IMG/VR virus record: IMGVR_UViG_2886837984_000001
Location: 1 to 64,000 of that record
Length of the DNA: 64,000 nucleotides
Strand: one strand, 5' to 3'
Source: a virus
Taxonomy: Duplodnaviria > Heunggongvirae > Uroviricota > Caudoviricetes
Within the stretch, counting starts at the first letter, position 1. Each line of letters begins with the position of its first letter. Positions 493 to 40,185 of the stretch are shown here, in pieces. The notes under the pieces were generated by a model. The model searched no databases and had not been told where the DNA came from. It was given only the letters and a program-made list of their open reading frames with translations. The position numbers were made by a program, and so were the translations under genes.

Positions 493-1926
493 TTAGTCGA
501 AGAACAGTCCGTACTCGAAGTCGGAGTCTTCGGCTTTGAGCTCATCCTCTAAAATAGAGGCGAGCAGGTTTCCGTAGGCGAGGGAAGAATATCTGTCCTT
601 ACGCATACGGCCTTTTTCCTTGAGACGGATCTTTCCGTTCAAGATCTCGTACTCAAGGTTGATCATCTCGTTGATGAGTGCGGTCGTCTGAAAGAACGGC
701 GCTAACATGCGCGCTTGCGTCTCTGAGTCGATTTTGTCGAGCTCATATTTATCTTCCAGGTAGTCCCGTCCCTCGAGGTCGTTCGCAAGTAGTTCGATTT
801 TCCCGTTCTCGATTGCGGCACGAAGTTTCGTGGCGATCGTATGGTTGATGTCGACCGTTGCTTTGACCGTATAGATGACCGGGAGAGCCATCGAGGGAGC
901 TCGTTCGGCCAACGCTTCGTCATTGTCCGACTTCCACGCCTCGTATTCGCTATCCCTCTCGTCGTCCCGTGTAACCTTGATCAATTCGTCATAGACCGAC
1001 ATCCCTAGACCGAGGGCATCGAGAACCGCCCAATCTGCTTCGAAATCATAAAAAAGACGCTTAAACATAAGCGCCTGGTAGTCTGAGTTTGCCCCGTTCA
1101 ACGAGTAGATGTTGACGATCTGTCGTTTGTACTCGCCGCCGTTAGGAAGCAACCGGATCAATGTGAAAATCGAGTTATCGTTATCTTTACCGCCGCTAAG
1201 GGCGACGTCTAGCGAGATGATTCGTTTCTCTCCGTTGACCTTCGGTATCTTCATCTTGGCGACACGTTTCACCGACGACGCGATAGTAGCCTCGTCAAAG
1301 AAGATGGCCGGTTTCAAGACTTTCCGACACTTTTGCATGTCTTCGAGACGGAAATAAGCTTTTTCTGACGAACCGTAGAACAGCGCCTCGTACTCCATCG
1401 AGAATGCGATAGGGTCGAAGTCATCCTCTTGCATCACCTGTTCGATGAACTTCGGCGGAAGCAACCCCTCATGGATCGAGAGGTTGTACTCGAGGTTGAC
1501 GGCGCAATAGTCGTCGTTCCCCTTGAACATCTGATAGGCGATCGCCTTCCATTTGTCGTACACCCAATTCGATCGATAGTGAGCGGACGTCAGGATGATC
1601 TCTGCGTTCGGCTCGACGGGGTAGTCTTTGTATTCGGTCTTGTTCTTGAATCCTGGAATCCGCTGAACGTTCAAGAACGGACGGAATATTTTGGTATAAT
1701 TCTCTGCCTTCAAAAGAATCGCTTCATCGGCCACCAATACCTGAGCACGAACGCCTCGGGCGTTTTCGTTGTTCGGTACGACGGTGATGGACGATCCGTT
1801 ATGGAAGAATACGTCGATGTTGCCACCACTGGTTTGAATCTTTTTGATCTCACGGGCGATATTCGGGTACTGCATGAGTTCCTTCTCTATCTTCTCCGTG
1901 ACAATCATCTTGGCTTGCCCTTTGGT
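493..1926 (-). CDS. terL: Terminase large subunit, exon 3. Covers the ATPase from after the P-loop through Walker B (VLVADE) and the nuclease domain.
   Basis: The first part (TKGQAKMIV...GNIDVFFHNGSSI...ARGV...LVADEA) aligns with T4 gp17 AHKGSMSAEVL...GSIELDNGSSI...VRGN...YIEDCAF. The frame is open from 1926 and carries no Walker A of its own. The region immediately upstream is intron sequence ending in G. Confidence 0.85.
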   Translation of the reverse strand, partial: TKGQAKMIVTEKIEKELMQYPNIAREIKKIQTSGGNIDVFFHNGSSITVVPNNENARGVRAQVLVADEAILLKAENYTKIFRPFLNVQRIPGFKNKTEYKDYPVEPNAEIILTSAHYRSNWVYDKWKAIAYQMFKGNDDYCAVNLEYNLSIHEGLLPPKFIEQVMQEDDFDPIAFSMEYEALFYGSSEKAYFRLEDMQKCRKVLKPAIFFDEATIASSVKRVAKMKIPKVNGEKRIISLDVALSGGKDNDNSIFTLIRLLPNGGEYKRQIVNIYSLNGANSDYQALMFKRLFYDFEADWAVLDALGLGMSVYDELIKVTRDDERDSEYEAWKSDNDEALAERAPSMALPVIYTVKATVDINHTIATKLRAAIENGKIELLANDLEGRDYLEDKYELDKIDSETQARMLAPFFQTTALINEMINLEYEILNGKIRLKEKGRMRKDRYSSLAYGNLLASILEDELKAEDSDFEYGLFFD

Positions 1927-3050
1927 CAGTTTTGTTATCGCATGGGCTTTTTATCCCTTGCTTCTACGCCTACATGGTCTCGGCGTAGCTCAGCATACAT
2001 CTTCACCCTCTAGGGGTGTCGGAGACTCGTGCCGGAATTATATTCTTCTTTGCGAAGGTTCATCCGGTATGCGTTACGATGCCGCCTGACTTTTAATCCA
2101 GGCGATTATCTCGGTATTGGGACATCAAACCATATCCTTTTACCGATATTCCCCGATCATAATCTCGGAGATTGCTCACCGAGACGGCGCCGGAAGATTA
2201 GCGTCGAAAAGTTCTTTCATGAACATAGCTTTCTTGAATTTTCTATCTAAGTGAATTTTCGAGTTGAAGTAATGAGCGTTTAAAAAACGAACAATATCTT
2301 CTCTTCTTGTAATCATTAGTTTATCGTTGTTTTTTCGTTTGGCATAAATACTCGATTTAATACCTAGCGAATCAAAATAAACTTTTAATTCGTTGAGAAC
2401 GACATCTTTATATCCCACGATTTCAACAGCGTAACGATACCGCTCATATCCCCGTTTATCTCTTCCGAACGACATATAAAGAGAACCATCTCCGTCAACA
2501 AATCCTCTAACGAAATGTTTCATCATCGCTGGGTTGATGCCGGTGAGACTCATCGCATATGTTTTGTTATGACCTATCCCGTAAGAAATTATGTCATTAC
2601 ATAATTCGGTTGAATGTATGATAATTTCGCAAGAAGGATATTCTTTACCATTAGACTTAGCTATTTTTTCTCTAACTGGAACATTAGCTTTGATGGCGTT
2701 TTTAAATTTCTCAAGATGACCCTTATCTTCGCCCTTTAAGGTTATTTTTAACGCCTTTGCCCCGGTCTTATCAATGATACAACCGTCTGCTGCGATAAAC
2801 CCTAACCAATACGACTTTTCTTCCGAGTCAATGACTTTAAAGAAATCTTTGTCATAATGATACCGAACAGTCATTCGAGAATATTTGGTATCGGTGATCC
2901 CCAAGGATTTGATTTTATGTCTCACGGATATTTTCGATCTGTTAAGAACGTCTCCGATTTCCTGAGCCGACATGTTTTTTGCATTTTCACTTAGATACAA
3001 TTCTTCTTCTTCAGTCCATTTTTTAACTTTTCGCATATATCTCCTTATTC
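1927..3050 (-). other. Group I-like intron 2 of terL. The homing-endonuclease ORF sits at its 5' end, followed by a structured core of about 250 nt.
   Basis: It lies between exon 2 (ends ...IAIVSG at 3051) and exon 3 (starts TKGQAK at 1926). The core at 1930 to 2175 is about 70% identical to intron 1 and shows compensatory hairpin changes. It ends ...AACAAAACUG followed by the exon. Confidence 0.55.
2176..3036 (-). CDS. LAGLIDADG-family homing endonuclease with two motifs and an N-terminal sigma-70 region-4-like HTH. It is encoded inside the intron.
   Basis: Motifs YWLGFIAADG and FVRGFVDGDGSL. The N-terminus EEEELYLSENAKNMSAQEIGDVLNRSKISVRHKIKSLG is HTH-like. It has its own RBS, AAGGAGATATATG. 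Confidence 0.85.
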   Translation of the reverse strand: MRKVKKWTEEEELYLSENAKNMSAQEIGDVLNRSKISVRHKIKSLGITDTKYSRMTVRYHYDKDFFKVIDSEEKSYWLGFIAADGCIIDKTGAKALKITLKGEDKGHLEKFKNAIKANVPVREKIAKSNGKEYPSCEIIIHSTELCNDIISYGIGHNKTYAMSLTGINPAMMKHFVRGFVDGDGSLYMSFGRDKRGYERYRYAVEIVGYKDVVLNELKVYFDSLGIKSSIYAKRKNNDKLMITRREDIVRFLNAHYFNSKIHLDRKFKKAMFMKELFDANLPAPSR

Positions 3051-3128
3051 ACCACTAACGATTGCTATTTTACTTTTTGGGAAAAGCACACATCTCGTAA
3101 TACAGTAAATCGCAGTCAGGAAGGATTT
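3051..3128 (-). CDS. terL: Terminase large subunit, exon 2. A 78-nt micro-exon encoding KSFLTAIYCITRCVLFPKSKIAIVSG, which supplies the Walker A lysine.
   Basis: Joining exon 1 to exon 2 gives AARGLGKS, a Walker A motif. The peptide aligns with T4 gp17 [25 protein letters not shown]. It is flanked by intron ends: ...AAAAGUG upstream, and an in-frame stop right after GGU downstream. Confidence 0.7.
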
Positions 3129-3402
3129 CACTTTTGTTATCGCAAAGGCTTTTTATCCTCTGCTTCTATATCTACATGGTCTTGATATAGGTCAGCATAT
3201 ATTTTCTTCTCGTCTAGAGAAGCCAAGGACTCGTGGGCGTCACTATGTTCTGCCAAAGCAGTTTCAGACATGCCTATGCGTTACGATATCACTCATCTTT
3301 TAAAACGAATGATTATCTCGGTGTTGGGAACGTGCAATCCATATCCTTTCACCGATATTCCTCGGTTTTCCATACTAGATCGCTCTAATAGGGGGCGAAT
3401 CC
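3129..3402 (-). other. Group I-like intron 1 of terL, 274 nt and ORF-less. It is inserted inside the Walker A codons, between GLG and KS.
   Basis: The exon 1 frame hits a stop 6 codons into this segment. The segment is homologous to the core of intron 2 with covarying stems, for example CTACGCC...GGCGTAG versus CTATATC...GATATAG. The 5' splice site follows a U, with GCCC seven nt downstream to pair with GGGU. The 3' end is G. Confidence 0.6.
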
Positions 3403-3672
3403 ACCCAATCCCCTGGCCGCGATGAACGCGGTGATACTACTGTGGAACATCATATAAATCAAAATCATCTGGAACAGCTTTAAGTCGAGACCGAAATAAT
3501 CTTTGATGAAGCGGTGTGGGTTTGCTCGATAGAAAGAACCCCATACCAAAAGCCCTTCATTCAATCTGTCGGCCTTGTTTTTAGGAAGACCGTCTTTTCG
3601 CTGCTTCTTCTCGCGAGAGTATATGTTTCCTCCGCGCTTGTCTTTGTTTCTGTTGACTTGAAACGCACCCAT
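3403..3672 (-). CDS. terL: Terminase large subunit, exon 1. It is the N-terminal 90 aa, ending ...LFQMILIYMMFHSSITAFIAARGLG.
   Basis: The sequence aligns residue for residue with T4 gp17 [24 protein letters not shown], directly before GKT. Its ATG overlaps the stop of the upstream gene. Confidence 0.7.
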
Positions 3673-4532
3673 TACTTGTCACCATCCAAAACGGACTCGA
3701 TATCGTCGTTCTTCGAACGGAGGTCGAGCGCTCGTTGCATCTGGTTGGTGAACCATTTAGTCATGTATTTCTTGATCCCGTCCACATCCTCGAAGATGTC
3801 TAATGGCTCGGGGATAGGACGCTCGTTCTCGATCTTCTCCATAAACTGACCGAAAGTGGCCGTGGAATTCTCGTCAAAACCGGTCTCCTGGAGTGGTTTG
3901 ATACGGGCATCACCCATTTGGCTCGATGCCGTTCTTTGGAGTTTTTCGTACTCAGATACATTTCCGTTAAATAAAGCTTCGTCTGATTTATGCAATGTGA
4001 TCACATAGCTTCGATAAAGGTTTCTTTTGACCGGTGTATCCGCCTCGTAAGCACTCAACATCTCTTGATACATCGCTTCTAGTTTGATCTTCTCTGCCGA
4101 ACTGAAACCGACCCACCGAGTCTTACTTGCCTGGCTCAACTCGTCGTCATCTTCTGATTCGGGGAACTCCGAGTCGTCCCATGTAAGGTTCGACATGCTG
4201 CTGATGCTGATGGATTTGAAGTAGTTCCCTAAGACCGCTTTTCCTTCCGAGCTATTTTCTGCCGCAATCCACTTGTCTTCGATAAACGGTTTGTCCATCC
4301 GTCGAAGCGTGTCGTAGACCGATACCTGGCTCGTCTCGTCAAACTGGTCTAAAATACATGTTTTACAGGTCGGGAATAGGGCGTCAGAATGATACGGGTT
4401 GGAGGATTTATAGTATTCGCTATATTTCCTCTCCTCACCGCAACAGGTACACGTCTTCAGCGTCCCGTTCTTCACCTTGCTGCTCAGACCCTTGAATTTG
4501 TCTGTGTTGACCGGTCTTGCCATGTCTGTCAC
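3672..4532 (-). CDS. Hypothetical protein with an N-terminal Cys4 zinc ribbon. It is a positional candidate for the terminase small subunit.
   Basis: 286-aa ORF with a CTCCGE...CKTC motif. It lies immediately upstream of terL exon 1 and is translationally coupled to it. It has an acidic central region. Confidence 0.6.
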   Translation of the reverse strand: MTDMARPVNTDKFKGLSSKVKNGTLKTCTCCGEERKYSEYYKSSNPYHSDALFPTCKTCILDQFDETSQVSVYDTLRRMDKPFIEDKWIAAENSSEGKAVLGNYFKSISISSMSNLTWDDSEFPESEDDDELSQASKTRWVGFSSAEKIKLEAMYQEMLSAYEADTPVKRNLYRSYVITLHKSDEALFNGNVSEYEKLQRTASSQMGDARIKPLQETGFDENSTATFGQFMEKIENERPIPEPLDIFEDVDGIKKYMTKWFTNQMQRALDLRSKNDDIESVLDGDK

Positions 4533-4535
4533 TCC

Positions 4536-5726
4536 TTAATTGAAGCGCAGGTTATATGTACAGAGTCGTCCGAGTTCACGCTCCCACACCATGAATTTCT
4601 GATGGGGGATGCTTGTCGCCCGAATGTCTTTCGCAAATTCGTCCACACCCGAGAGTGTGCCGTTTTGAATGATGTCAACGCCGTGAACTTCTTTTTCGAA
4701 GTGGTGGTGTCGATGTCCAAGGAGAACGGCAGCCGGTTTTCGGCCGGTCATGAGCGTCAAGTTCTCGACCACGTTGTTCGGTCGATCCTTGTGACCATGA
4801 ACCCCGTACACTAAGTCTCCGCAAATGTTGATTTCACACAATTCTTCATCGATTTGATTCTCGTGGAACGTCACACGAGCGTTGTTCTCGAGACGTGCTT
4901 TCACGTACCAGTGGATGATATCCATGAAACTCTCAGAAGAGAGCGTCAAGTCTTTCTGTGGTGTGATGCGGTCGTGGTTGCCTCGCACACAGTAGTAGTC
5001 GATACTGAAGTGCTCGGATAGTTCGTTCACGACCTCGGCAAGCACCTCTCCGACACGCATTGTCTGAATCGATACGTTCTCCGTGTTTTCGATACGGATC
5101 GTCTGATGGATGAGTCCTGAAATCATGTCGCCCAATACGGCCACATGCAGACGCTCGATCCCGTTCTCGATCCCGTGTTGGATCACACGGTTCTTGAGGT
5201 AGGCGACCCGTTCGAAGAACACGTTGTTGTCGAACTTGTTCCATGCGTTGTTCGCATGTGTCCCGAAGTGCCAGTCCGAGAAGACCGTGAGACCTTCGCG
5301 TTCCGATACGACGGGAACAGAAAAGTCTTCTTGGATGAGCGGTTTGCTCTGTGCAAGAAGACGGATCTCATGAAGCATATTCGCTTTCATCTCTTCGACT
5401 CGAGCCTCGTCACGCACATAACCTTTGTAGATACGGCGTTGGTCTTGCACCCGAATCTTTTCTTTTTCGAGCTCACGACGTTTGATTTCGAGTTCTGCTG
5501 TCAGATCGTCAAACGATACCGACTTGTCTTCCGCATATCTCATACCTTCTTGGAAGGCCGCATATTTCTTGCGCCACTTCGACTCGCCGTGATCCTTGCC
5601 AAACTCTTCGTTCAAGATCTGTCCGACCTCTACCCAACTCAGACCGTATTGATCCTTGTTCGAGCAGATGCGGACGAAATAATCTTGTTCGGTCTCGTCG
5701 CTCAATCGTTTGATTTCAATCATCAT
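4536..5726 (-). CDS. Calcineurin-like metallophosphoesterase family protein.
   Basis: Motifs HVAVLGD, VRGNHD, GVHGHKD and LGHRHHH. The N-terminal 150 aa is an extra domain. Confidence 0.7.
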   Translation of the reverse strand: MMIEIKRLSDETEQDYFVRICSNKDQYGLSWVEVGQILNEEFGKDHGESKWRKKYAAFQEGMRYAEDKSVSFDDLTAELEIKRRELEKEKIRVQDQRRIYKGYVRDEARVEEMKANMLHEIRLLAQSKPLIQEDFSVPVVSEREGLTVFSDWHFGTHANNAWNKFDNNVFFERVAYLKNRVIQHGIENGIERLHVAVLGDMISGLIHQTIRIENTENVSIQTMRVGEVLAEVVNELSEHFSIDYYCVRGNHDRITPQKDLTLSSESFMDIIHWYVKARLENNARVTFHENQIDEELCEINICGDLVYGVHGHKDRPNNVVENLTLMTGRKPAAVLLGHRHHHFEKEVHGVDIIQNGTLSGVDEFAKDIRATSIPHQKFMVWERELGRLCTYNLRFN

Positions 5727-5920
5727 TAGTCCTCCGAATCTACTGGTTCAACGGTCGTTTTCTCGGTGATGCTGATGACGACTTCTGCGTCATGGAAACG
5801 TTTCAAGACTTCCATGAGGTCGTATTCGAACTCACCGGCTTTCGTGATTTCTGTGACGCGCATCGTGCCGACGTCCAATGATCCTTTAAGTGAAACCGAA
5901 TGTTTGATCTCTGCTGGCAT
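5726..5920 (-). CDS. Hypothetical small protein.
   Basis: ORF in an operon context. The start is more likely the internal ATG at 5920 (MPAEIKH...) than the TTG used by the ORF track. Confidence 0.4.
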   Translation of the reverse strand: MPAEIKHSVSLKGSLDVGTMRVTEITKAGEFEYDLMEVLKRFHDAEVVISITEKTTVEPVDSED

Positions 5921-5921
5921 C

Positions 5922-6083
5922 TCAGACCACCTCCGATTCAAAGGTGAAGTCTTCGACCTTTTCGAGCTCGTCTTTTACGATATCGAGTTGCTCTTTGATC
6001 TCCGTGTTGCATTTGTGACCGGCTTTCTGAAGCTCTGCAAGAACCTCAAGGAAGCGGAGTCGGTAGTTTAATTTTTCGTTCAT
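5922..6083 (-). CDS. Hypothetical small protein, 53 aa: MNEKLNYRLRFLEVLAELQK...
   Basis: ATG at 6083 with GGAGAG upstream. Its stop lies 1 nt before the ATG of the next gene. This is the first gene of the leftward operon. Confidence 0.35.
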   Translation of the reverse strand: MNEKLNYRLRFLEVLAELQKAGHKCNTEIKEQLDIVKDELEKVEDFTFESEVV

Positions 6084-6104
6084 CGTTCATCTCTCCGTTT
6101 CTAT

Positions 6105-6190
6105 GTATGTTCTAATGTTAGAATATATAAGTTCTATAATTAGAAGATTAATGTTCTAACGTTAGACTATTTATGTTCTAATGTTAGAAT
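6105..6190. promoter_or_regulatory. Array of four palindromic sites, TGTTCTAA-YG-TTAGAAT, spaced about 22 bp apart. A candidate operator array upstream of the leftward late operon.
   Basis: Three near-identical copies at about 6106, 6152 and 6174, plus a degenerate TTCTATAATTAGAA at about 6133. They are read directly from the sequence. Confidence 0.45.
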
Positions 6191-6200
6191 TTTGTTTGCA

Positions 6201-6247
6201 AAAAAAAGACTCGCCCTAGTCCGCATCGTTGATAGGCGTGGCGAGTT
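6201..6247 (-). terminator. Putative rho-independent terminator on the minus strand.
   Basis: GACTCGCC and GGCGAGT arms are followed on the minus strand by a U8 run (A8 on plus, 6200 to 6207). Confidence 0.35.
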
Positions 6248-6364
6248 CATGTCTAATTCAATTGCGGAGAGGTCTCCCTAACCGCTTTAGTCCGGGTGTG
6301 GTACAGGACTTTGCTCTGGTGTCGACGAATCGACATGATAGTAGAATCGAATGAAGGGGAGTTT

Positions 6365-6462
6365 GTTGGCCAGGTTTCCCACACCTCATTAGAGTTTTTT
6401 AGCCAGGTGTCTAATCACCTCTCGAATTTTATTTAGCCAGGTGTTTTGCCACCTCACGACAT
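6365..6462. promoter_or_regulatory. Three copies of TTAGCCAGGTGT-N5-6-CACCTC, an inverted repeat AGGTG/CACCT, at a spacing of about 31 bp.
   Basis: The copies sit at about 6369, 6401 and 6433. The palindromes GAGGGTTGACCCTC and GACGTC...GACGTC follow. Confidence 0.35.
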
Positions 6463-7114
6463 TCGATTCTAGAAAGGTGAGGGTTGACCCTCATGATAAA
6501 ATGGCGCCTTTATTGGACGTCAAAAATGAAAATATAACGCCTGAAACCAAAAGTGACGTCCCACGTAGTTGTGGCTTTTTCGTCAGGTTGCGAACCTGAT
6601 CCGGTGATAATTTGTCCGCAACGAGGCAGGACGATGTATGCACTCAATTGTGCGGTGCGCTAGGCACAAAATATAAAGACCCGACGAGGTTCGCTTCTAT
6701 GCTAGGCGTGTCGGGTTCCGGTAAATCAAATAAGACCCCAAAGGGTCGTGACAAATTTCTTTGCCACCAAATTGGTCTTTACAAATCAAATTTGCACCAC
6801 TTAAGGCGCGGGTTATCCAAATGAGGACACCCTCAATATAGAAGGCTCGAAGTGTTTCGCATATTCAGAGGCGTTTTCGAACTACTGTTCTAAAAAATAG
6901 ATGACGCCCCGTCTACGCCTTAGGGGGATAGCTTTCGTAGCATTGTTTTCCTTTTTTCAAAGCCGCTACGCCGGAGCAGGTTTCATCTCTAACCCGCTAG
7001 TTTTGAACACCCATTCGCCCACACAGCCTTTTGTCCGAAGTCTCGTTGACAGTCGATTGGATCGATACAAGATGACCTTCGGGGGTCTGAGTAGGAATTC
7101 TGGATGCCAAATTT

Positions 7115-7167
7115 GATAAAAACTCGGCTTACAGCCCGGGGAATGATAGACAGGCCGAGTTTTTATC
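7115..7167. terminator. Candidate bidirectional terminator hairpin.
   Basis: AAAAACTCGGC ... GCCGAGTTTTT stem, flanked by an A-run and a T-run. Confidence 0.4.
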
Positions 7168-7395
7168 AATAAATACGCTGTATTGTGTGTCTTCGCCTTG
7201 GCGGACAAGCAAATTAATCAGCGTTGACAGCCGTGGCTGTGAAGTAAAACGGGCCACTTAACTTGTTTTGAAGTTATCCTTCTAGCAAGCCACCTCTGGG
7301 ACTTTGTTGAGGTCTTTCCTCTAATGTTGAGTCTTCACGACTCACATATCCGAAGATACGCATCTTTAATGTGGTGCTGACTAATCAGCATGATA

Positions 7396-7668
7396 TTAGT
7401 TTTTGCAGCAACAAGGACTTTCGACTTTAAAACCTCTTGCTTTAACCCGCTCGGCTTGAATGTCGATAGGTTGATTTTTATTTTCTTCGAGATCTTTAAT
7501 GTGGTTTTCGAGTTCTGCAAGACGTTGCTTATATTCGCCTAAGTAATCTTTACGGTTTTGTAGCAACTCTTCCTGAAAATTAATCTCTGACTCTGTACTT
7601 CTAATTTCAGCATTAATACGTTTTGCTTCCCTTTGCAGAGTGCTAATCACGGCTTTCATCTTCATCAT
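7396..7668 (-). CDS. Hypothetical coiled-coil protein, 90 aa.
   Basis: It is the only sizeable ORF in the 2-kb non-coding hub and has a weak RBS. Its heptad-like content is charged. Confidence 0.35.
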   Translation of the reverse strand: MMKMKAVISTLQREAKRINAEIRSTESEINFQEELLQNRKDYLGEYKQRLAELENHIKDLEENKNQPIDIQAERVKARGFKVESPCCCKN

Positions 7669-8099
7669 CCTTTTCTCTTTTATTGGTTTTTAGCGCTCAA
7701 ATCAGCCTTTTCTAAGGCTAGAACTAAAAATAATCCGCGCACACCTATCTTTCAAGGCGGCGCAGATGTTGGTCGGTCAGTCCGACCTGCTTCGAAATCT
7801 ACCTAGCTAGGTTGCTGTCTTTCTGTTTTTAACGTGGAGCTCGGCTGCACCACTATTAAGTTGTGTGTGATCTTTGAGGGTGGCCGCGCGATAAGCACGA
7901 CCAATTCCCTTGTGATGCGGTATGAATAGTTGCCCGCTCTAACCGAACTCTGCGAGCCGTCTGCGCATGACAGTTTTCCTTGAGACGACGGATTTCCGAC
8001 CCAATGTCGTACTCTCCTCAGACACATAGCCCTACGCATCTGCGCCCATTCTCAAAAGTGGCTAATCCTTCGAGAATCGCGGTATGTATGATTTATGAT

Positions 8100-9350
8100 T
8101 TACAACTTGTTCGCAAACATCTTACATGTCTCAGAACGCTCATCTTGCGTGAGCACCACAATCGCACATTGCGGATCGCCTTTAAGTTTGTTCACGGCCT
8201 CGATGATGCCCGAAGATTTCACGAACGCATCGTTCGTTTGAGCGAAGTCGCCCGTAAAGACGATCTTCGAATCCTTGCCGACACGCGTACCACAGTTTCG
8301 AATTTCTTTTAAACTCAAATCCGAACACTCGTCCACCAAGATCAATGTCGAATCCATCGATAAGCCTTTGACAAAGCTGATTTCGTGTTTCGTGAGCTGT
8401 CCGTTCTCCGACATATGTACAGGGTCTTGGATAGGGTCGTCTAAATGTTGTACGAAAGTCTCGTAGAACACGCCCATCTTCTCGTCCATGTCGCCAGGTA
8501 GGAATCCGACGCTCGATACATCTGCTTTACGCATGAGTGCGATCCGACCAAAGTCGCCTTTTCGAATCGTTTTCTCTTGCGCCATCTTCACCGACATCAT
8601 CGTCTTGCCTGAGCCAGCCAATCCTAAGATGAATACCGATGTGATATCCGGGTTGTTCAAAGCATCCAACGCACAAGCTTGTTCGGCGTTACGCGGTTTG
8701 ACGACACGATATTCGGGGAGTTTGATTTCCACGAACGACTCGCCGTTCCAACGTCGCACCATCTCTTTGAATTTCTGTTGTGACGGGTCGTCGATGATAA
8801 CATATTGGTTGATCTCCAACTTCATCTCATCTGCCACCGTCTTGTCGTCCATCCATACTCGGTCGATCAACTCTGCTTCCACGTCATCGTTCGGGTCGAG
8901 TTTTGTATATCCCTTGTATGAATACACATCCGTCGACACTTGCTGAAGCTGTTTTACTTCGACTCCGAATCCATGCGCTTGAATCCCGAGCAACATATCT
9001 TCCGTAATCAATCCGTACTCAGGGTTTTGAAGCAGACACTCTAAGAATTGGTTGTCCACATACTGTTCATCATATTCGCCGTGTTCAAGTAGCTTGTTCA
9101 ATCGATAAGGTTTCGTGTTGTACTCGAGACGGTCTTGATGTAACGTCAACCAATGCTGTGCGACACGCGCACGATAGGCTAGGTCACTCGACCGTGACGA
9201 CTTGTGTTTCTCGATCTCTCGTAAAAGCATGGTCGTCACGACGACCTCATTCGGATTCAAGGCGCTGATGTTATTCAGCACCACATTCGTATCGACTACA
9301 AACTTCTTCATCTTCGTTTCGGTCGTCATCATGTTATCCCCGATCATCAT
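8100..9350 (-). CDS. phoH: PhoH-like ATPase with an N-terminal PIN domain, the PhoH2 or YlaK type.
   Basis: PIN motif KKFVVDTNVVL. PhoH Walker A GLAGSGKT and LILVDECS. Confidence 0.8.
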   Translation of the reverse strand: MMIGDNMMTTETKMKKFVVDTNVVLNNISALNPNEVVVTTMLLREIEKHKSSRSSDLAYRARVAQHWLTLHQDRLEYNTKPYRLNKLLEHGEYDEQYVDNQFLECLLQNPEYGLITEDMLLGIQAHGFGVEVKQLQQVSTDVYSYKGYTKLDPNDDVEAELIDRVWMDDKTVADEMKLEINQYVIIDDPSQQKFKEMVRRWNGESFVEIKLPEYRVVKPRNAEQACALDALNNPDITSVFILGLAGSGKTMMSVKMAQEKTIRKGDFGRIALMRKADVSSVGFLPGDMDEKMGVFYETFVQHLDDPIQDPVHMSENGQLTKHEISFVKGLSMDSTLILVDECSDLSLKEIRNCGTRVGKDSKIVFTGDFAQTNDAFVKSSGIIEAVNKLKGDPQCAIVVLTQDERSETCKMFANKL

Positions 9351-9363
9351 CGAATTTTCGTCG

Positions 9364-9654
9364 TCAGTTAAACTTGTCTTTCACCTTGTTTGAAGGTCTA
9401 AATGTAACCGTCTGTTTGTCTTGCGTCACCACGGGTTCTCTTGTCTTCGGGTTTCGTCGGATCGTGCCTTTTCGTGTCTTCACTTCGAACGTGCCGACCT
9501 CGGCAATCGTAATCTTCTCTGCTGTCTTCAGTTCTCTGAAGAGCGAGCGGAACACCGTGTTGATAATATCTGTCGTCGTCGGAATATCTGCGCCGATGTC
9601 TTTCGCCAAAATCTTGGCGAACTCGGAGCGGTTCATCGCTTTCTTTTTGCTCAT
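9364..9654 (-). CDS. HU/IHF-family histone-like DNA-binding protein, phage TF1-like.
   Basis: MNRSEFAKILAKDIG...GTFEVKTRKGTIRRNPKTREPV..FRPSNKVKD matches the HU fold signature. The likely start is the ATG at 9654, which has AGGATGG upstream. The ORF track begins 7 codons earlier. Confidence 0.75.
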   Translation of the reverse strand: MSKKKAMNRSEFAKILAKDIGADIPTTTDIINTVFRSLFRELKTAEKITIAEVGTFEVKTRKGTIRRNPKTREPVVTQDKQTVTFRPSNKVKDKFN

Positions 9655-9822
9655 CGTAATCATCCATCCTGTCATCGTTTAATAGAAGAAGAGAGACGTG
9701 CGTCCACATCTCTCTTCGGTTTTTATGTATGCGGTAAAATAATCATTTTACTTTTTTATTTAATACCCTTCATAACTAAGGGGGAGTTAGACAAGAAATA
9801 TTTCACATTTCCACCTAATCCC

Positions 9823-11274
9823 TTATGAATTCGAGCATTTCTTACAAATTGTTCGGAATCCGTCTTTTGAAGATGTGTTTTTCTGGAAATAACGGTCGTT
9901 AGAGATCAGCTTTGTCTCTCCGCACTTCGTACACGTCTTGTATTTTCCTTTGAGTTTGTGCGTGTACACATGCTCGTCGACCTCTTCAAGATACGTCTGA
10001 TGGACTTTCTTCGGAATCGAAGAGTTGACCATGCGGTTGATTACCACGGTCGACAACCCAAGCTTCTCGGCCACGGACGATTGTGTCTGCGCGTCGATCA
10101 GGAGCGAGCACACGTCACGCTCTTCCGTCGTGAGTGGTGCTTTGTCCAGGAGTCGCTTGAATTCCCATAAGAGCCAGTACCAATCAGACGTATAGTTCCC
10201 GTCGTACTTGTCCCATAGCTCGGCATACATCGTGAGGAGCGGTCGGTACGTCTTCAAGTCGCCAAGCGATATGGCGTTCGTAGACACCTCGACGATCTCA
10301 CCGTCTTCCTTCTCGTAATATGTATTCGAGTTGATGTCGTACACCGGTTTACCGGCGTCAGGGGAGAGTGTGACCGTCTTGACGAGTTGACGCTTCATGA
10401 TCTCGTACTCACCTTTGACGCTCGAGTACGTCTTCCGAAGAAGGTTGTACTGTCGCTCGGGCGTGAAGTGTTTCGGCAACTCCTTGCCCTCAGACTCCTT
10501 CTCGATCGCCTTGATCGTGTTCTGTCTGATGATGTCCTGCATATCCTTCGTCTCGTTCACGCCGAGATAGTAGCGCATGTAGTCGATGTCGCGCTTGAAG
10601 TCCTCGAACACCTCTTGCTGCGTCGTCACCTCGCCGTGGTAGAAAGGGATCTCGTTGCCTTTCTTGTATGTATCCCAATAGGCTTCATCAAGATACTCAT
10701 CCGCCAACTTGAAGGACGAACGCTTACGCTTCATATCCAACTTCTGTTCGCTCGTGAGCTGCGTCTTGCCTGTCGCCTCTAGGACGGAGAAGTCGTTCGT
10801 GAGGACTTCGTGAGCGGTATCCGTGACACGCTTCATATAGTCGTACTCACGGGGGCGCTTCTGGAACACATGGTCTGTGCTCTCTGACAGTGATTCTAAG
10901 AATGCACGTTCCTGCTCTTCGCTATCGAACTTCGTGAACAGGATGTAGTCCGCAAGCGTCGCGAGTGTCTTGTCTAGCGTCTGGTCTTCCGAAAGGAATG
11001 ATGACGCCTTCTTGTGCTCCTTGATGATCGTGCGTTCGGCCGACATGATGTCCTCGAGGAAGTCTACCTCTCCCAATAAAGAGGAGACGAGCTCGTTTCG
11101 CTCTTCCCCGTACTTCGAGAGGTAGTTTAGCTTCGAGTGGACGAGTTCGCGCAACGCCTGGATGTCGCCTCGTTCTTCGAACGGGCTGTCACCGAAACGC
11201 ATTCCCTCGAAACGCTTCGGCAGTTCCATCCCGTCGATGATGATCGTTTCTACTTCTTCACGCACGACCAGCAC
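9823..11274 (-). CDS. Putative transcription regulator. It has a sigma-70 region-4-like HTH near the C-terminus and a C-terminal Cys4 zinc ribbon.
   Basis: LTTEERDVCSLLIDAQTQSSVAEKLGLSTVVINRMV is sigma region-4-like. The zinc ribbon is CTKCGETK...CKKCSNS. Confidence 0.6.
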   Translation of the reverse strand: MLVVREEVETIIIDGMELPKRFEGMRFGDSPFEERGDIQALRELVHSKLNYLSKYGEERNELVSSLLGEVDFLEDIMSAERTIIKEHKKASSFLSEDQTLDKTLATLADYILFTKFDSEEQERAFLESLSESTDHVFQKRPREYDYMKRVTDTAHEVLTNDFSVLEATGKTQLTSEQKLDMKRKRSSFKLADEYLDEAYWDTYKKGNEIPFYHGEVTTQQEVFEDFKRDIDYMRYYLGVNETKDMQDIIRQNTIKAIEKESEGKELPKHFTPERQYNLLRKTYSSVKGEYEIMKRQLVKTVTLSPDAGKPVYDINSNTYYEKEDGEIVEVSTNAISLGDLKTYRPLLTMYAELWDKYDGNYTSDWYWLLWEFKRLLDKAPLTTEERDVCSLLIDAQTQSSVAEKLGLSTVVINRMVNSSIPKKVHQTYLEEVDEHVYTHKLKGKYKTCTKCGETKLISNDRYFQKNTSSKDGFRTICKKCSNS

Positions 11275-11461
11275 CTCCGTATTGCTTCGACCATTCCACG
11301 AGGGCAGAAGACAACTCTTCTGTCACCTCGAAGATCGAAGCAGGGCGTCCGTCGAATTTCGGGTCTTCATCGTATGTACGGATCTTGGCGAGAAGCGGGT
11401 AGACCTTTTGTGAACGTAGGAACTGATATTGTTTGAGTGATTTGCAGACATAAAGTTTCAT
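11258..11461 (-). CDS. Hypothetical small protein.
   Basis: It is a 67-aa ORF that overlaps both its neighbours. Confidence 0.3.
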   Translation of the reverse strand: MKLYVCKSLKQYQFLRSQKVYPLLAKIRTYDEDPKFDGRPASIFEVTEELSSALVEWSKQYGGAGRA

Positions 11462-13836
11462 TTTGAATTATCTCCCTTAATACTTTTTGATTTCGTTAAT
11501 TTTTCTGAAATAAGTTCACCGAGCATCGTCTTCCGTTTGATGCTGCCGTCCCGTTTGACGCTACCGTTGATAGTGTAACCCGTACCGATGATGACGAGTC
11601 GTTCTCGTGCTCGCGTGATCGCCGTGTAGACGAGTTGGCGGTTTAACATATATGTATTCGACTTGTCGGCCACGAAGATGACCGCCTTGTTCGACGACCC
11701 TTGCATCTTATGGACAGTCATCGCGTACCCGAGAGAAGAGTTCTTGAAGAGCTTTCTTTCCCACGCATACGTAACGCCGTTGACGTCGATATAGAGCGTC
11801 TTCGAGTCAAGGTGGATACCGACGACCTTGCCGATCTCGCCATTAAAAAGTTTTGCTTTGTCTGCCGACTTTTCAAGTTTAGCCAGAGGCGGCATCGTCT
11901 TCTTCTTAATGATCTCTTGTGCTGTCAGTTCGCTGTCCGGTTGCTTTACAAACAAGATCTGCTGGAACGAGTGATACAGAAGGACATTGGGCGTGTTGTC
12001 TGTGATGAGTATCGGGTCTCCGATGCGATATGTATATCCGGCGAACTCGATCTCAGGTGAAATCGGATTGTGAGGGTTGAACTCGTTCTGAATCTCTTTG
12101 TTTAGTTCTTGGACGCCGATATCTCCTTTGTTCGTAGGGGAGATGACCGTGATGTCCGATAGGTCGATCTTTTCTGTCAGCTTCTTCATATAGACGATGA
12201 CGGCCTTCTTGATCTTTTCTTTCGACGTCTGATGGAAGATGGTGTCCGAGCCTAGCCGCGAAGCACCGTTGTTTTCAGACACGAGCTTCTGCTTCTGACG
12301 TGCTCTCGTGGCGAGATCTAAGATACCGCCTTCCGCTTGACGGAAGACCTTGGTGAGCTCGATCGTCTTGACACCGTTTTGCGTGAGGTCAAGGAGAACC
12401 TTTCCTGCTCCGACCGATGGTAGCTGCTCGGGGTCTCCGATAAAGACGAACCGTTTTGCGATCCCTTTGTTCTTCGCGATGTGATACATGATCTCTGTGT
12501 CGGTCATCGAAAACTCGTCTGCGACGAACACTTCTTCGTTGATCGCATAAGGTTCTTTATCGTCTTCCTCTGCCGTAAAATCCTCTTCTATGAAGGCGTC
12601 CGAATATTCGGCGTCCTTCTCGTCTTTGTCGACACCGATACCGAGCTTGCTGTGAAGCGTTCCTGCCTTGACCCCGGTATACTCTTGCAGGAGTTTCGCT
12701 GCACGTCCGGTAGGGGCTGTGAGCGTTACCGCCCATCCAGCGCTGTCGACCATCTGCACGAGCGCCTTCTGAAGCATCGATTTACCTGTTCCTGCGTATC
12801 CGAGCAGGCAGACGATGGTATGATCTTTTACCGCATAGAAGAACTTCTTCTGCTGTTCGGTGAACGTCACCTCGTTCTTTTTCTCGAACTGGACGATAAA
12901 CGCATCCACCTGCTCGTCGTTCAAAGGAAACTCGTCGACATCTCGGTTGACGTAGTCTGCGATAAACTCTGAGGTGAACGTCTCGCGGAAGTAGGTGTTT
13001 TGGAACGCCACCGTCTTACGCTCCTCGTCGATATGGATGTCGTTTCCGAGGTTGACTTCGTTGATCCGTGAGACGGGGATCGAGAGGAGGTCGAACATCT
13101 CGTCGATAAACGCCTTCTTACTCATATATGTAGAACCTGATTGTTCATTTTCTTTCGTTATGTATCGTGCGGCCGAAGTGATCCGATAGACGCTTTCTTC
13201 CGGCACACCCATCTTGAGGGCGATCGGGTCGACCGTCTTGAAGCCGAGTCCACGGAAGTTCGTGAGCACATATGGGTTGTCTGCGATGATCTCTAGCGCT
13301 CTATCTACGCTACCGTAACGTTTGAGGAGTTGTTCTCCCATCTGCGCGTTGACACCGAAGTTGGTGAGTTTGGCCGAGATGATCGCTCCGCCTTTTCGGT
13401 TCTTGACCTTGTTGACCAACGTATTGTAGTTCTTTCTGCCAAACCCTTTGACTTCCTCCCATCGGAGAGAGTCTGTCTCGACCTCTTTAAAGATATCGAA
13501 CGGCTTCTTGTAGACCTCCATAAACTCTTTGACCTGATTCTCGGTCAAGAAGAGACTCATGAGCGCCAGTTTTTCCTGCGGTGTCTGCGGACTTCGCTCC
13601 ACGAAGCTGATGGGCTCATATTGCTTGCCATACGTAGGGTGCGACGTCTCTTTGACATAGCATTCGACGACCATGCCCACTGAGAATTCCGGCATGTAAC
13701 CCTTTAGTGTCGCCCGGGTTCTCGTATCGACTTCCTTGGTTTGGTAGATATAGAAGCGTTTGTCGTCCGATACATAGCTGATCTTGGTGATTTCAAGTTG
13801 TTTTGTTTCTTGTTTCAATGAAAAATCTCCTCTCAA
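11458..13836 (-). CDS. RecD-like SF1B DNA helicase, RecD2 or Dda-type.
   Basis: Walker A LLGYAGTGKS. VFIGDPEQLPSVGAG and YAMTVHKMQGSS resemble helicase motifs. It has a long N-terminal extension. Confidence 0.8.
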   Translation of the reverse strand: MRGDFSLKQETKQLEITKISYVSDDKRFYIYQTKEVDTRTRATLKGYMPEFSVGMVVECYVKETSHPTYGKQYEPISFVERSPQTPQEKLALMSLFLTENQVKEFMEVYKKPFDIFKEVETDSLRWEEVKGFGRKNYNTLVNKVKNRKGGAIISAKLTNFGVNAQMGEQLLKRYGSVDRALEIIADNPYVLTNFRGLGFKTVDPIALKMGVPEESVYRITSAARYITKENEQSGSTYMSKKAFIDEMFDLLSIPVSRINEVNLGNDIHIDEERKTVAFQNTYFRETFTSEFIADYVNRDVDEFPLNDEQVDAFIVQFEKKNEVTFTEQQKKFFYAVKDHTIVCLLGYAGTGKSMLQKALVQMVDSAGWAVTLTAPTGRAAKLLQEYTGVKAGTLHSKLGIGVDKDEKDAEYSDAFIEEDFTAEEDDKEPYAINEEVFVADEFSMTDTEIMYHIAKNKGIAKRFVFIGDPEQLPSVGAGKVLLDLTQNGVKTIELTKVFRQAEGGILDLATRARQKQKLVSENNGASRLGSDTIFHQTSKEKIKKAVIVYMKKLTEKIDLSDITVISPTNKGDIGVQELNKEIQNEFNPHNPISPEIEFAGYTYRIGDPILITDNTPNVLLYHSFQQILFVKQPDSELTAQEIIKKKTMPPLAKLEKSADKAKLFNGEIGKVVGIHLDSKTLYIDVNGVTYAWERKLFKNSSLGYAMTVHKMQGSSNKAVIFVADKSNTYMLNRQLVYTAITRARERLVIIGTGYTINGSVKRDGSIKRKTMLGELISEKLTKSKSIKGDNSK

Positions 13837-13896
13837 TTTCGTTCTTTATTTCTATATAAAATATACCATATCTAAATCAAAAAGTAAAGCGTCTTA

Positions 13897-13931
13897 GGGG
13901 TTGACACGAAATCAAAAAATATGGATAATAA
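13897..13931 (+). promoter_or_regulatory. Sigma-A-like promoter: TTGACA, a 17-nt spacer, then GATAAT. It lies upstream of the recombinase gene.
   Basis: GGTTGACACGAAATCAAAAAATATGGATAATAA. The spacer carries the recurring AAATCAAAAA box. Confidence 0.45.
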
Positions 13932-13968
13932 AGTTATCAACAACTAAGCATAAGGGAGCGGATCGACA

Positions 13969-14988
13969 ATGGAAGCCATCAAAACAGTAGCGTTGAACAC
14001 GACAAACATTCAGAGCAATATCCGATTGTTCTTAGATAAGAAGGGGCTCAACTCCGATCAGACACGACGGGCATATGAGCGAGATATCGAGGAGTTCTTC
14101 ATCTTCTCGAAGAACAAGGCTGTCTCCGGTCTATTGGAGTCAGACGTATCGTTCTCGCCGCAAGACGTCGACAAATATCTCGTCCATCTGTCGGAGAAAG
14201 GGACTGCCTCGTCCACGATCAATCGTAAAGTCGTCTCTGTACGCTCTCTGATGCGCTACCTTGACCGCTTGGACGGATATGACATCAACTTATCGGCGTT
14301 CGATACCGGCTCTGTGAAGGGCGCTCAGAACTCGTATGGGGTGCTCACGTATGAAGAGACGGAGATGATGGCGAGCCGTGTCCTGTCTCACCGTAACGGT
14401 CAGATGAAGGCCGCCCTCATTCGTTTGGCCGTGGTGACGAGTTTCCGCTTGGATTCGCTCTTGCGATTGACGAAGACGGACTTTATGAATCAGCGAGGCG
14501 TGTGGACGGTGACAACGGTGGGGAAGGGCGGAGAACGTGATACGAAGGCTATCCGTGACGAGTTGTACGAAGAGATCCGCATGATCATGATGTTTAAAGA
14601 GGACGATGAGCCGATCTTCAAATTGTCTCCTGGGACTGCGTTGAACATGGTTAAGGGTCTGTCTGAGGAGATGGGGGTTCCGAAAGAGCGCAATATCACG
14701 TTCCACTCGCTGAAGAAGGCCGGTGTGACAGAGGTGTGGGTGCAGACGGGGTACGACGCTATGAAGACGAAGAAACAGGGGGCGCACAAGAACTTCTCTA
14801 CGACAGAGCGGTACATCGAGAACAACGAAGACTTCTCGCAGTCACAGAGCCTCTTGATCGGAAAAGAGATTGACTTGTCTATGTTGGACGGGCTGTCTAA
14901 AGACGAACTGCTCGAGTTCATCAACGGCATGAACCGCAGCGTGAAGATGCAGATCAAAAATGAGATCAAGAAAAAAGGGATGGCGTAA
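13969..14988 (+). CDS. Tyrosine recombinase or integrase, XerD/phage-integrase family.
   Basis: N-terminal core-binding region TRRAYERDIEEF. Candidate catalytic R in VVTSFRLDSL. HSLKKAGVT. The C-terminal motif is GAHKNFSTTERY. Confidence 0.75.
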   Translation: MEAIKTVALNTTNIQSNIRLFLDKKGLNSDQTRRAYERDIEEFFIFSKNKAVSGLLESDVSFSPQDVDKYLVHLSEKGTASSTINRKVVSVRSLMRYLDRLDGYDINLSAFDTGSVKGAQNSYGVLTYEETEMMASRVLSHRNGQMKAALIRLAVVTSFRLDSLLRLTKTDFMNQRGVWTVTTVGKGGERDTKAIRDELYEEIRMIMMFKEDDEPIFKLSPGTALNMVKGLSEEMGVPKERNITFHSLKKAGVTEVWVQTGYDAMKTKKQGAHKNFSTTERYIENNEDFSQSQSLLIGKEIDLSMLDGLSKDELLEFINGMNRSVKMQIKNEIKKKGMA

Positions 14989-15004
14989 GCCGTCCCTTTT
15001 AGTA

Positions 15005-16369
15005 TTATACAGAGAAGTCGTACAGCTTGCCGAGCGCTGACTTCTTCTCGATTTTTCGTTTCATTCTCAAGTGAAGAGGCTTAGGATTCGAAAGGTAGAA
15101 TTTGTCTACGTTACCGATCACCTCGGAGTGTTTGCCGCTGATGACGTCTCGAAAGTACGCACCTTGCTTAAGGGAAGATGAATAAATTTCAGCAGCACTA
15201 GACCACTCCCCTCCCATCTCATTCACCTCTTCAAGCTTTGCGTCTTCTATTTTGAGAAAGTTGTTGAATTTGTCCGAAATCTTTTCAGATCGATTTTCGA
15301 TTGCAATCTTTTTGTTCTTCTGAAACGATTCAAGAATTTCTAGATACTCACCATCGCGCTTTTTGCCTGAGTAGTTTTCAATAAGCAGTTCGGCCGATTG
15401 TTTTGGGTCGCAAAACGGAAGAATTTTTTTCTTGATATATTTGATCACCGTCGGAGGCGTCGCCTTCATGTAGAAGCTTTGCTTTTTGTAGACGTATACG
15501 ACTTGACGAGGACATCCGTCTGGATCAGGGTCTAGTACCGTCTTCATAGCCTCTTCGATATCTTCTTTACATTTATCAATTTTTTCTGCCTTATGCTTGT
15601 TGTTGTATTTGATGTCGCTATATGTAAGGTCGTTATCTACAATCAATTTTCTTCTTGTTGACAGAACTTTCCCCATTTCTTCTGCGGTAATCGCCTGATG
15701 GATAGATCCGGTAGGTTCGTACTCGACGAACAATTCTCCGTTCTCATCAATGTACTGGACTTTTTCGTGCTTGATCACAAGCGCCCAATACTCATCTAAA
15801 CTGCCAATGATTTTTGATTTCAGTAGTCGGTTGAAAGACGACTCCATGTTTCTACGGACTGTGTCGTGGAAATCGATGTAATCACTAAACACCTTGTTTT
15901 GTCCTGCCTCGATCACGTTCTCGTCGATCAGATCGTCAATCTGCATCTTCTTATGAGATTCATCGAAACGGCTCAGATAGGCGTCGTGCATACTTCTCGT
16001 CGCAATACCCATCTCGACCATCCATGACGCTACGGTTCTAGGTCTAAACGCGCTTGGCGACTCAGTACCTTCAAGATACCCGATGATAGCCATATCTAAG
16101 TCGTAGCTATAAGGTACGCGCATATTACTCCCGTTAAGCATTCGGTCATCCTGTCTGTCGGAAACCTCGCTCTTTTTACCTGACAGTCGGTAACAAATAG
16201 ATCTTCCTTCTTTGACTCGTTCTACATTAGAGTAATGTTGTTCGAGCGTTTTGAATAAAGACTCCTCTACTCGTTTCGATGTAAATCGTCGATATTTATT
16301 GAAGTGATCTTTCTGAGGTTTAGTACCATACTCTTCTACGGCCTCTCTCTTAGATAGAACTTTAACCAT
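15005..16369 (-). CDS. Hypothetical protein, 454 aa.
   Basis: It is a long K-rich ORF with an RBS. It converges on the recombinase gene, and its start abuts the AT-rich palindromic region. Confidence 0.7.
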   Translation of the reverse strand: MVKVLSKREAVEEYGTKPQKDHFNKYRRFTSKRVEESLFKTLEQHYSNVERVKEGRSICYRLSGKKSEVSDRQDDRMLNGSNMRVPYSYDLDMAIIGYLEGTESPSAFRPRTVASWMVEMGIATRSMHDAYLSRFDESHKKMQIDDLIDENVIEAGQNKVFSDYIDFHDTVRRNMESSFNRLLKSKIIGSLDEYWALVIKHEKVQYIDENGELFVEYEPTGSIHQAITAEEMGKVLSTRRKLIVDNDLTYSDIKYNNKHKAEKIDKCKEDIEEAMKTVLDPDPDGCPRQVVYVYKKQSFYMKATPPTVIKYIKKKILPFCDPKQSAELLIENYSGKKRDGEYLEILESFQKNKKIAIENRSEKISDKFNNFLKIEDAKLEEVNEMGGEWSSAAEIYSSSLKQGAYFRDVISGKHSEVIGNVDKFYLSNPKPLHLRMKRKIEKKSALGKLYDFSV

Positions 16370-36431: not shown

Positions 36432-36541
36432 GAGGGGAGCAATCCTCTCTTTTTAATTTATTTTAAGCCAGATGCTTGACGTACTAAATCAAAAAGTATA
36501 GTATAGAGAATGTAAGAACAATACATAACACGAAGGAGTGA

Positions 36542-37531: not shown

Positions 37532-37631
37532 GAAGAAATCGAATTAAAAAAGTAATACATAAAAAACGCCGGAAAGCGTTTATCGACAGAGGACACATCA
37601 ACATTTTCATTTTAAAGAAAATGGTGATTAC

Positions 37632-38678: not shown

Positions 38679-38927
38679 TCAGGTTAAGAAAATAAGAACG
38701 AACGTTCGTGTTGAGGAAAAAATGGCTATAAAACACTATAAATTATAGTTTTTACCCGTCATTTTCCTCAACTAAACCTTTTTACCCAAAAATATCTAAA
38801 GAAAGTCATACAATATTCCTAAATTATCTAGATTATTTGCCAATTAAGAGGTATTATAAATAGGTGATATAAGAATACGTATGCAATCAAAATGTTTTTA
38901 TAATTAAGAAAACGGGGGATTCAACAC

Positions 38928-40157: not shown

Positions 40158-40185
40158 TCAAAATATTTAAAGTGAGGTCATTGAG

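Follow-up and report, generated by a model that had tools for sequence, protein, structure and literature searches.

A predicted homing endonuclease gene in the putative P1 loop of a group I intron interrupting the terminase gene of an SPbeta-like phage

How can the gene of a homing endonuclease begin almost at the 5' splice site of a group I intron whose catalytic core comes only after that gene? The question is raised by a 64,000-nt stretch of viral DNA (IMG/VR record IMGVR_UViG_2886837984_000001, positions 1 to 64,000), hereafter called the window, in which a large terminase gene (terL) is interrupted by two introns. The second of these, intron 2 (1927..3050, 1124 nt, minus strand as for all window features described below), contains an open reading frame (ORF) of 286 amino acids (2176..3036). 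The reading that we favour, and that we hold to be likely, is that this ORF encodes a double-LAGLIDADG homing endonuclease with an N-terminal helix-turn-helix (HTH) domain and lies in terL, within the P1 loop of a group I intron that is mobile and of IA type.

The terL gene itself fixes the limits of both introns. Exon 1 (3403..3672, 90 codons) closes with ..AARGLG at the protein level, exon 2 (3051..3128, 26 codons) encodes KSFLTAIYCITRCVLFPKSKIAIVSG, and exon 3 (493..1926, 477 codons) starts with TKGQAKMIV... Both 5' exons have T (U in the RNA) as their last base, and both introns end in G, the omega-G of intron 2 being at 1927. Removal of the introns restores the terL reading frame and yields a 593-aa TerL with Terminase_6N and TerL_ATPase matches, which is colinear with intron-less homologues and gives, in tblastn, one unbroken match of 42-45% identity with YonF of SPbeta and with over 140 further phage terminases. 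In an alignment with three intron-less homologues, there are no gaps at either junction and the surrounding residues are conserved (ARG.GK(S/T) and I.SGTKGQA). The gap-free alignment and the U/G junction bases therefore assign positions 3402-3129 to intron 1 and 3050-1927 to intron 2. Intron 1 (3129..3402) is a 274-nt ORF-less group I intron between the Walker A codons GLG/KS (here and below, a slash within a site marks the insertion point), the Walker A lysine codon being the first of exon 2. The initial annotation had located intron 2 in the P-loop, which does not agree with this map: Walker A is split by intron 1, and 26 codons (78 nt) separate that intron from intron 2, which is inserted downstream between ..IAIVSG and TKGQA.., within SG/TKGQA, a conserved motif after the strand following Walker A. 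The host gene, which intron 2 interrupts in its ATPase domain, encodes the YonF-type large terminase of an SPbeta-like (pro)phage whose source is Exiguobacterium sp. SH5S4.

That the interruptions are group I introns is indicated by an alignment of five related cores, namely those of intron 1, of intron 2, of introns in two other terL genes (contigs L004 and L005) and of one that interrupts a RecD-like helicase gene in Bacillus phage vB_BsuS_PJN02 (L014). In L004, L005 and vB_BsuS_PJN02, the core again follows a LAGLIDADG ORF. RNAalifold folded the five cores into P2, a long-range P3, P4, P5, P6, P7.1/7.2, P8, P9 and P9.1, with compensatory changes in 44 of the 70 pairs, and P7, including its bulged nucleotide, was added as a pseudoknot with P3. 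The completed fold comprises 76 pairs, 45 of them with compensatory double changes, and 92% of the cells are paired; none of 500 shuffles reached as high a value, and structures slid by 1-3 columns were 35-44% paired. P7 itself covaries, with an A-U to G-C exchange in L014. A covarying stem (alignment columns 159-166/193-198), together with an inner hairpin between the 5' strand of P7 and P3', corresponds to P7.1/P7.2, whose presence between P7 and P3' is a hallmark of subgroup IA in the classification of Michel and Westhof. From their predicted folds, both introns are assigned to group I, IA type, an assignment that rests on structure because Rfam gave no match, as detailed below.

In intron 2, the putative ribozyme core spans 1927..2185. 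P2 is formed by 2185-2176 and 2171-2162, its 5' strand holding the stop codon of the ORF, P3 by 2156-2150 and 2025-2019, P4 by 2146-2141 and 2116-2111, P5 by 2138-2134 and 2123-2119, and P6 by 2110-2098 and 2089-2078. They are followed by P7 (2074-2068 with 1997-1992), P7.1 (2067-2063 with 2036-2032), P8 (2018-2013 with 2009-2004), P9 (1988-1980 with 1970-1964) and P9.1 (1961-1955 with 1946-1940). A profile of the five cores finds exactly two copies in the window, those of intron 2 (1927-2190) and intron 1 (3129-3402) (nhmmer, E 1.7e-75 and 9.1e-63), whose cores are paralogous with 68% identity. The idea that intron 1 is a recent direct copy of intron 2 finds no support in this mutual identity, since the vB_BsuS_PJN02 intron is just as similar to intron 2 (70%).

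These structural data also bear on whether the locus contains a splicing intron at all. It could instead be imagined that a free-standing endonuclease gene lies between terminase fragments that are translated separately, and fractured phage genes that come with endonucleases are indeed known (PMC2677866). The missing Rfam group I match would fit such a fractured gene, as would the Shine-Dalgarno sequence that the ORF possesses and the stop of the upstream frame just before it. Against this, the 250 nt after the ORF fold as a group I core, with covariation and with P3 and P7 forming a pseudoknot, the boundaries carry the U/G signatures of splice sites, exon 2 would be a 26-codon fragment devoid of a start codon, and exon 3 has no start at the junction, whereas the joined exons give an exactly colinear TerL. 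Moreover, no intein domain was detected in the spliced TerL. The fractured-gene explanation is therefore considered very improbable.

The position of the ORF within intron 2 can be deduced from both of its ends. As the initial annotation had stated, 14 nt of the intron precede the ORF, the 5' splice site lying between 3051 and 3050 and the ATG at 3036, and the conserved core is found wholly 3' of it. The 14-nt leader between the 5' splice site and the ATG (3037..3050) contains a stop codon in the exon 2 frame (TAA, 3047-3045), 8 nt before the AUG, and a Shine-Dalgarno sequence AAGGAG (3046-3041), and a scan of these 14 nt for an internal guide sequence retrieved neither GCC nor G followed by the complement of the exon end. 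At the other end of the ORF, the final codons GCG CCG TCT CGG TGA comprise both a guide sequence, GCCGU (2184..2188, the 3' strand of P1), and the 5' strand of P2. This GCCGU can pair with the end of exon 2, GUGGU (3055-3051), through U.G, G-C, G-C, U.G and G.U. Comparison with intron 1, an ORF-less paralogue of the intron 2 core, is useful here: it has a P1 in which GGGU and GCCC enclose the 6-nt loop ggauuc (GGGU/ggauuc/GCCC), and its guide GCCCC aligns with GCCGU at 2188-2184 of intron 2. Homology between the two introns begins at the guide, at about 2190, and so overlaps the last five codons of the ORF, which bears out the claimed overlap of the C-terminus with the start of the core. All five family members have kept GCC just 5' of P2, and a 5' exon end in GGU is common to the family, while in the relatives L004, L015 and L016 P1 is clear only as a 3-bp GGU/GCC core. 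Intron 2 has a single further GCC[AG][CT], internal to the ORF (position 354; window 2697), which is not aligned with the guide of intron 1. Since the guide is found 3' of the ORF, the homology starts there and the leader is free of a guide, the endonuclease gene is predicted to occupy the P1 loop.

One could also suppose that the ORF is inserted in P2, or between P1 and P2, and that P1 is formed with a guide located 5' of the ORF. The weakness of P1 in intron 2 speaks for this placement, and the intron of L005 has, 35 nt from its start, a GCCAA for which pairing with the exon end could likewise be drawn. It is difficult to reconcile with a 14-nt leader in which GCC and G plus the exon-end complement are both missing, with the alignment of the intron 1 guide 3' of the ORF and with the GCC that directly precedes P2 in all five members, and we regard it as highly improbable. 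As for the P1-loop placement that we prefer, the initial annotation had called such a P1 or far-5' position unusual; the location in the P1 loop is sustained, its novelty is not, because homing endonuclease genes (HEGs) in P1, if uncommon, have been published, and the closest relatives of intron 2 are organised in the same way.

Several observations nevertheless weigh against a P1-loop endonuclease gene in a mobile group I intron. The P1 of intron 2 has two Watson-Crick and three wobble pairs, a weak duplex of -3.7 kcal/mol. No convincing P10 was seen in intron 2, where inspection by eye gave at most two adjacent pairs. The spacing of 4 nt between the Shine-Dalgarno sequence and the ATG is short. 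The group I model RF00028 of Rfam 15 produced no match at its gathering score or at E<=10, the searches covering the region, the full window and, with lax filters, intron 1 by itself (311 nt); because the structural tests came out in favour of a group I fold, this miss is taken as a sensitivity limit of RF00028. Finally, the collections searched contained no close phage relative with or without the intron, the best hit of a contig scan with TerL exon 3 being 46% identical, and a megablast search of the 6 kb region against phages retrieved a chance 34-nt match only. With no near-identical pair of intron-plus and intron-minus alleles, recent mobility cannot be demonstrated.

A separate observation concerns the 3' third of the ribozyme (P8 to P9.1, with the AUAAAAAGCC...GAUAACAAAA tail), of which segments 75-92% identical occur in more than 100 phage genomes, including phages of S. 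thermophilus, Staphylococcus, Clostridium/Clostridioides and Oenococcus, where they lie in or near terL, in or near tape-measure genes or in unannotated regions. These matches indicate what is probably a widespread, mostly unannotated intron lineage.

Several lines of evidence converge on the nature of the ORF product. The two LAGLIDADG motifs noticed initially are confirmed, the first (YWLGFIAADGCI, 2776-2811, GFIAADG) with the catalytic Asp84 and the second (HFVRGFVDGDGSL, 2479-2517, GFVDGDG) with the catalytic Asp183. Pfam LAGLIDADG_3 matches two stretches of the ORF (1.2e-12, 48.3 bits for a cut-off of 22.5), LAGLIDADG_1 reaches 31.4 bits (cut-off 23.1), and in PHROGs residues 5-270 match phrog_4645, "endonuclease", at 2.8e-46. 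A profile of 32 homologues, compared with solved structures of the Protein Data Bank (PDB), gave I-Tsp061I (PDB entry 2dch, 1.9e-10), I-AniI and I-HjeMI. In the AlphaFold model (mean predicted local distance difference test score, pLDDT, 92.7), helices and strands follow the expected order in two alpha-beta-beta-alpha-beta-beta-alpha domains, and the top Foldseek matches, all with probability 1.0, are I-AniI, I-OnuI-family enzymes, I-SmaMI, the bI3 maturase and I-Tsp061I. D84, G85 and D181-G184 are invariant in the alignment of the 32 homologues. The proposal of an intron-encoded homing endonuclease is hence supported by profile, predicted fold and invariant aspartates, and the ORF shows no sign of the degenerate pseudogene that had been considered as a counter-possibility, its reading frame being full length and colinear with all homologues. 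Its GC content of 36.6% (a fall to 36-38% over the ORF, against 49% in the terL exons) is what one would expect of an imported element. Databases already list an identical protein, with locus tag EVJ32_04515, from a 121-kb contig of Exiguobacterium sp. SH5S4; NCBI labels it "hypothetical protein" and UniRef LAGLIDADG family homing endonuclease. Based on the modelled structure, the ORF product appears to be a functional-looking monomeric double-LAGLIDADG homing endonuclease with an N-terminal HTH, and DNA cleavage is predicted.

The HTH domain (2899..3018, residues about 7-46, WTEEEE..MSAQEIGDVLNRSKISVRHKIKSLG) consists of three helices, at residues 9-18, 24-31 and 35-44, modelled with high confidence, and many homologues keep the pattern W-T-x-E-E..L..N...S..E.a..L.R(S/T)...v..K...LG. 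The resemblance of the N-terminal 40 residues to sigma-70 region 4 put forward in the initial annotation is thereby upheld as regards the HTH, with its three helices, but not as regards the sigma-factor identity, which neither Pfam nor the PDB profile specifically supports. In Pfam, the only HTH match of the endonuclease itself is HTH_11 (E=0.07), and the weak matches among the 32 homologues are distributed over GcrA (6), HTH_23 (5), HTH_7, HTH_24 and Sigma70_r4_2 (4 each) and Sigma70_r4 (1). An HTH-only profile compared with the PDB gave as best matches Myb repeats (1h8a 0.0016; B-Myb; c-Myb R3), then the homeodomain-like CRISPR-repeat binder Cbp2 (2lvs, 0.0023; PMC3597662) and, more weakly, GcrA and RcsB, no sigma factor being among the matches listed. 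Foldseek with the isolated domain returned no match below E=0.25, and its top 50 are LuxR/GerE, Lrp, Myb and homeodomain HTHs, with zero sigma factors. The domain is best described as a generic, presumably DNA-binding tri-helical HTH whose sequence appears closest to Myb, Cbp2 and GcrA.

Alternatively, the protein could be a decaying or domesticated remnant that no longer cleaves DNA and is kept either because its loss would damage P1/P2, or for a role as maturase or DNA-binding regulator. Consistent with this, the window copy has no internal promoter or terminator, unlike L004, L015 and L016, the overlap of the ORF with the guide and P2 constrains deletions, a weak P1 with an 860-nt loop might require a protein helper, and the Foldseek matches include the bI3 maturase and the bifunctional I-AniI. 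Such a remnant, however, would not be expected to retain a full-length frame colinear with all homologues, both catalytic aspartates along with the other invariant residues, and a high-confidence structure model; moreover, we know of no LAGLIDADG maturase described from a bacterium or a phage. This remnant explanation is accordingly judged quite unlikely.

If the favoured reading of an active endonuclease is adopted, its target should be sought at the site of intron 2. The P-loop codons that the initial annotation had designated as the cleavage target do not fit the exon map, and the predicted target is the exon 2/exon 3 junction AGTGGT/ACCAAAGGGCAAGC, encoding SG/TKGQA. The corresponding site is TCGGGC/ACAAAGGGACAAGC in SPbeta yonF, and that of intron 1 is TTGGGT/AAATCC. 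Among the four closest endonuclease homologues (47-51% identity), the genomic context was retrieved for three (P0002, P0003 and P0005), and all three lie at the same ASG/TK site of terL in SPbeta-like metagenomic contigs (L004, L015 and L016), with a YonG_N gene preceding; L004 has AGTGGT/AC(A/C)AAAGGGCAAGC in common with the window. The ASG/TK site is empty in L001-L003 and L006-L010; it is free of an intron in SPbeta, in Lysinibacillus phage LC76P1, in C. difficile phages and in a number of prophages. Orthologous endonucleases at one site, next to intron-less alleles of that site, constitute a homing signature.

Other positions of terL are occupied as well. In L005 (540-1575), an intron at SSAW/YKSHW contains a LAGLIDADG ORF without HTH, in frame with the exon and called as a 426-aa fusion, and in L011 (2966-4000), a Metabacillus arenae prophage, an unrelated group I intron with a GIY-YIG ORF lies at about residue 292 of terL. 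The presence of introns at several sites therefore designates terL of this phage group as a frequent landing place.

In terms of mechanism, the endonuclease would cut intron-less terL at or near the exon 2/exon 3 junction AGTGGT/ACCAAAGGGCAAGC, and recombinational repair from the intron-bearing allele would copy intron 2 into the cut allele. Intron 1 would be carried along by co-conversion, because it has no ORF and is only 78 bp away. For splicing, the exon 2 end GUGGU would have to pair with GCCGU about 860 nt downstream, the whole ORF being looped out.

How the endonuclease would be produced is a related matter, on which the relatives are instructive. On the sense strand, L016, L015 and L004 have sigma-70-like hexamers that match 11/12, 10/12 and 9/12 positions and occupy one conserved place, 6-11 nt downstream of the 5' splice site (L016 2939-2967; L015 2948-2976; L004 3938-3966), and in L004 (4887-4904) and L015 (3895-3916) the ORF is directly followed by a terminator-like hairpin at the position of P5. 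Promoter and hairpin together look like a putative autonomous transcription unit within the intron. The window copy, unlike L004 and L015, has neither the promoter-like leader nor the terminator, and no promoter for the endonuclease was found on the minus strand near 3036-3130. Since the leader has been cut to 14 nt, the ORF starts so near the splice site, and the absence of a promoter suggests expression from unspliced terL RNA. Ribosomes could then start at the Shine-Dalgarno sequence of the ORF itself or re-initiate once they have terminated at the in-frame UAA. As the ribosome-binding site, 4-9 nt from the 5' splice site, abuts the 5' strand of P1 and the stop codon is in P2, translation and formation of P1/P2 would exclude each other on any given RNA. 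A conflict of this kind between translation and folding is known for other phage introns in which an ORF runs into the core (PMC3984707; PMC2504315). An extension of this mechanism, tentative and in our view rather unlikely, is a translational switch, in which ribosomes translating exons 1 and 2 of half-spliced RNA would terminate, re-initiate on the endonuclease and thereby block P1/P2, while untranslated RNAs would splice and give TerL, so that the doses of the two proteins would be reciprocally coupled; the protein might besides help, in a maturase-like manner, to fold a P1 with an 860-nt loop.

Most components of this arrangement have counterparts in known systems. Its protein family and architecture are shared by the Staphylococcus Kayvirus/Twortvirinae endonucleases of phrog_4645, such as I-812II of the recA-like gene of phage 812, which combine the same HTH with two LAGLIDADG motifs, align with residues 5-270 of the ORF at about 28% identity and likewise reside in group I introns of essential phage genes. 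The phage 812 intron differs by its host gene and backbone, by an ORF whose start is about 345 nt downstream of the 5' splice site and whose 3' end overlaps the S element (P7'), hence by a different loop. The solved monomeric enzymes I-AniI, I-Tsp061I, I-DmoI and the I-OnuI family share the fold and the arrangement of catalytic motifs with the ORF, but are 13-20% identical, have no N-terminal HTH and come from archaeal or organellar hosts.

As for the ribozyme, the intron of the vB_BsuS_PJN02 RecD-like helicase gene belongs to the same family, with a core 67-70% identical over 96% of its length, and also has the ORF first, the core after it and a GCCGTCT guide region at the ORF end; it differs by its helicase host, by its insertion between G and K of Walker A, as for intron 1, and by a leader of about 60 nt. 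Its site in the helicase Walker A (L014 1330-1345, 2470-2480) reads ATGGGT/AAATCT, the same place as that of intron 1 in TerL, and the window has its own RecD2-like helicase gene (11458-13836), whose Walker A CAGGT/AAATCG is uninterrupted. The lineage of intron 1 and the PJN02 intron may move between P-loop codons of unrelated nucleoside triphosphatases. The PJN02 endonuclease (L014 1396-2234) is annotated as two overlapping coding sequences, "mobile intron protein" and "endonuclease", which suggests a frameshift or a decaying copy.

Concerning the placement, Tourasse and Kolsto (2008, PMC2504315) described the HEG of the B. cereus AH1134 recA group I intron as "located within P1", nuclear group I introns of ribosomal DNA have HEGs in P1, P2, P6, P8 or P9 (PMC3679873), and early in-frame stop codons have been described as general for phage introns (PMC2504315). 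The AH1134 recA and nuclear P1 cases resemble intron 2 by the placement in P1 and by an in-frame stop within the first few intron nucleotides; they differ from it by their host genes and by endonuclease families that are other or unknown (nuclear: His-Cys box). Similarly, terL of Bastillevirinae and other phages contains one to three IA-type group I introns, many with endonuclease genes (PMC11878797; PMC2504315), and covariance models miss halves of some Bastillevirinae terL introns (PMC11878797). The nucleases there are of the HNH/VSR type, whereas the window combines an SPbeta-like phage with a LAGLIDADG nuclease. P1 endonuclease genes and terL genes with several introns are, consequently, already published.

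Elsewhere in the window, positions 3672-16369 and 34144-45284 have an SPbeta-like (pro)phage context, with a gene in the YonG position upstream of terL, and other genes encode a metallophosphatase, PhoH+PIN, the RecD2-like helicase mentioned above, a tyrosine integrase, a DndB-like protein and a DHH/DHHA1 protein.

Although current concepts are left unchanged by the finding, several points are of interest, namely a promoter-less P1-loop gene that touches both strands of P1, two paralogous introns separated by 78 nt and a ribozyme lineage that Rfam does not detect. For annotation, terL appears here as fragments beside a "hypothetical protein", and the exon map recovers a complete 593-aa terminase. 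As a resource, the ORF provides a well-defined member of phrog_4645 with a predicted target of 20-30 bp, in a family that has an extra HTH and no solved structure. Two paralogous introns 78 bp apart, of which one carries an endonuclease gene, offer a natural case for hitch-hiking by co-conversion, and a promoter-less gene abutting both P1 strands would be a compact natural case of translation set against ribozyme folding.

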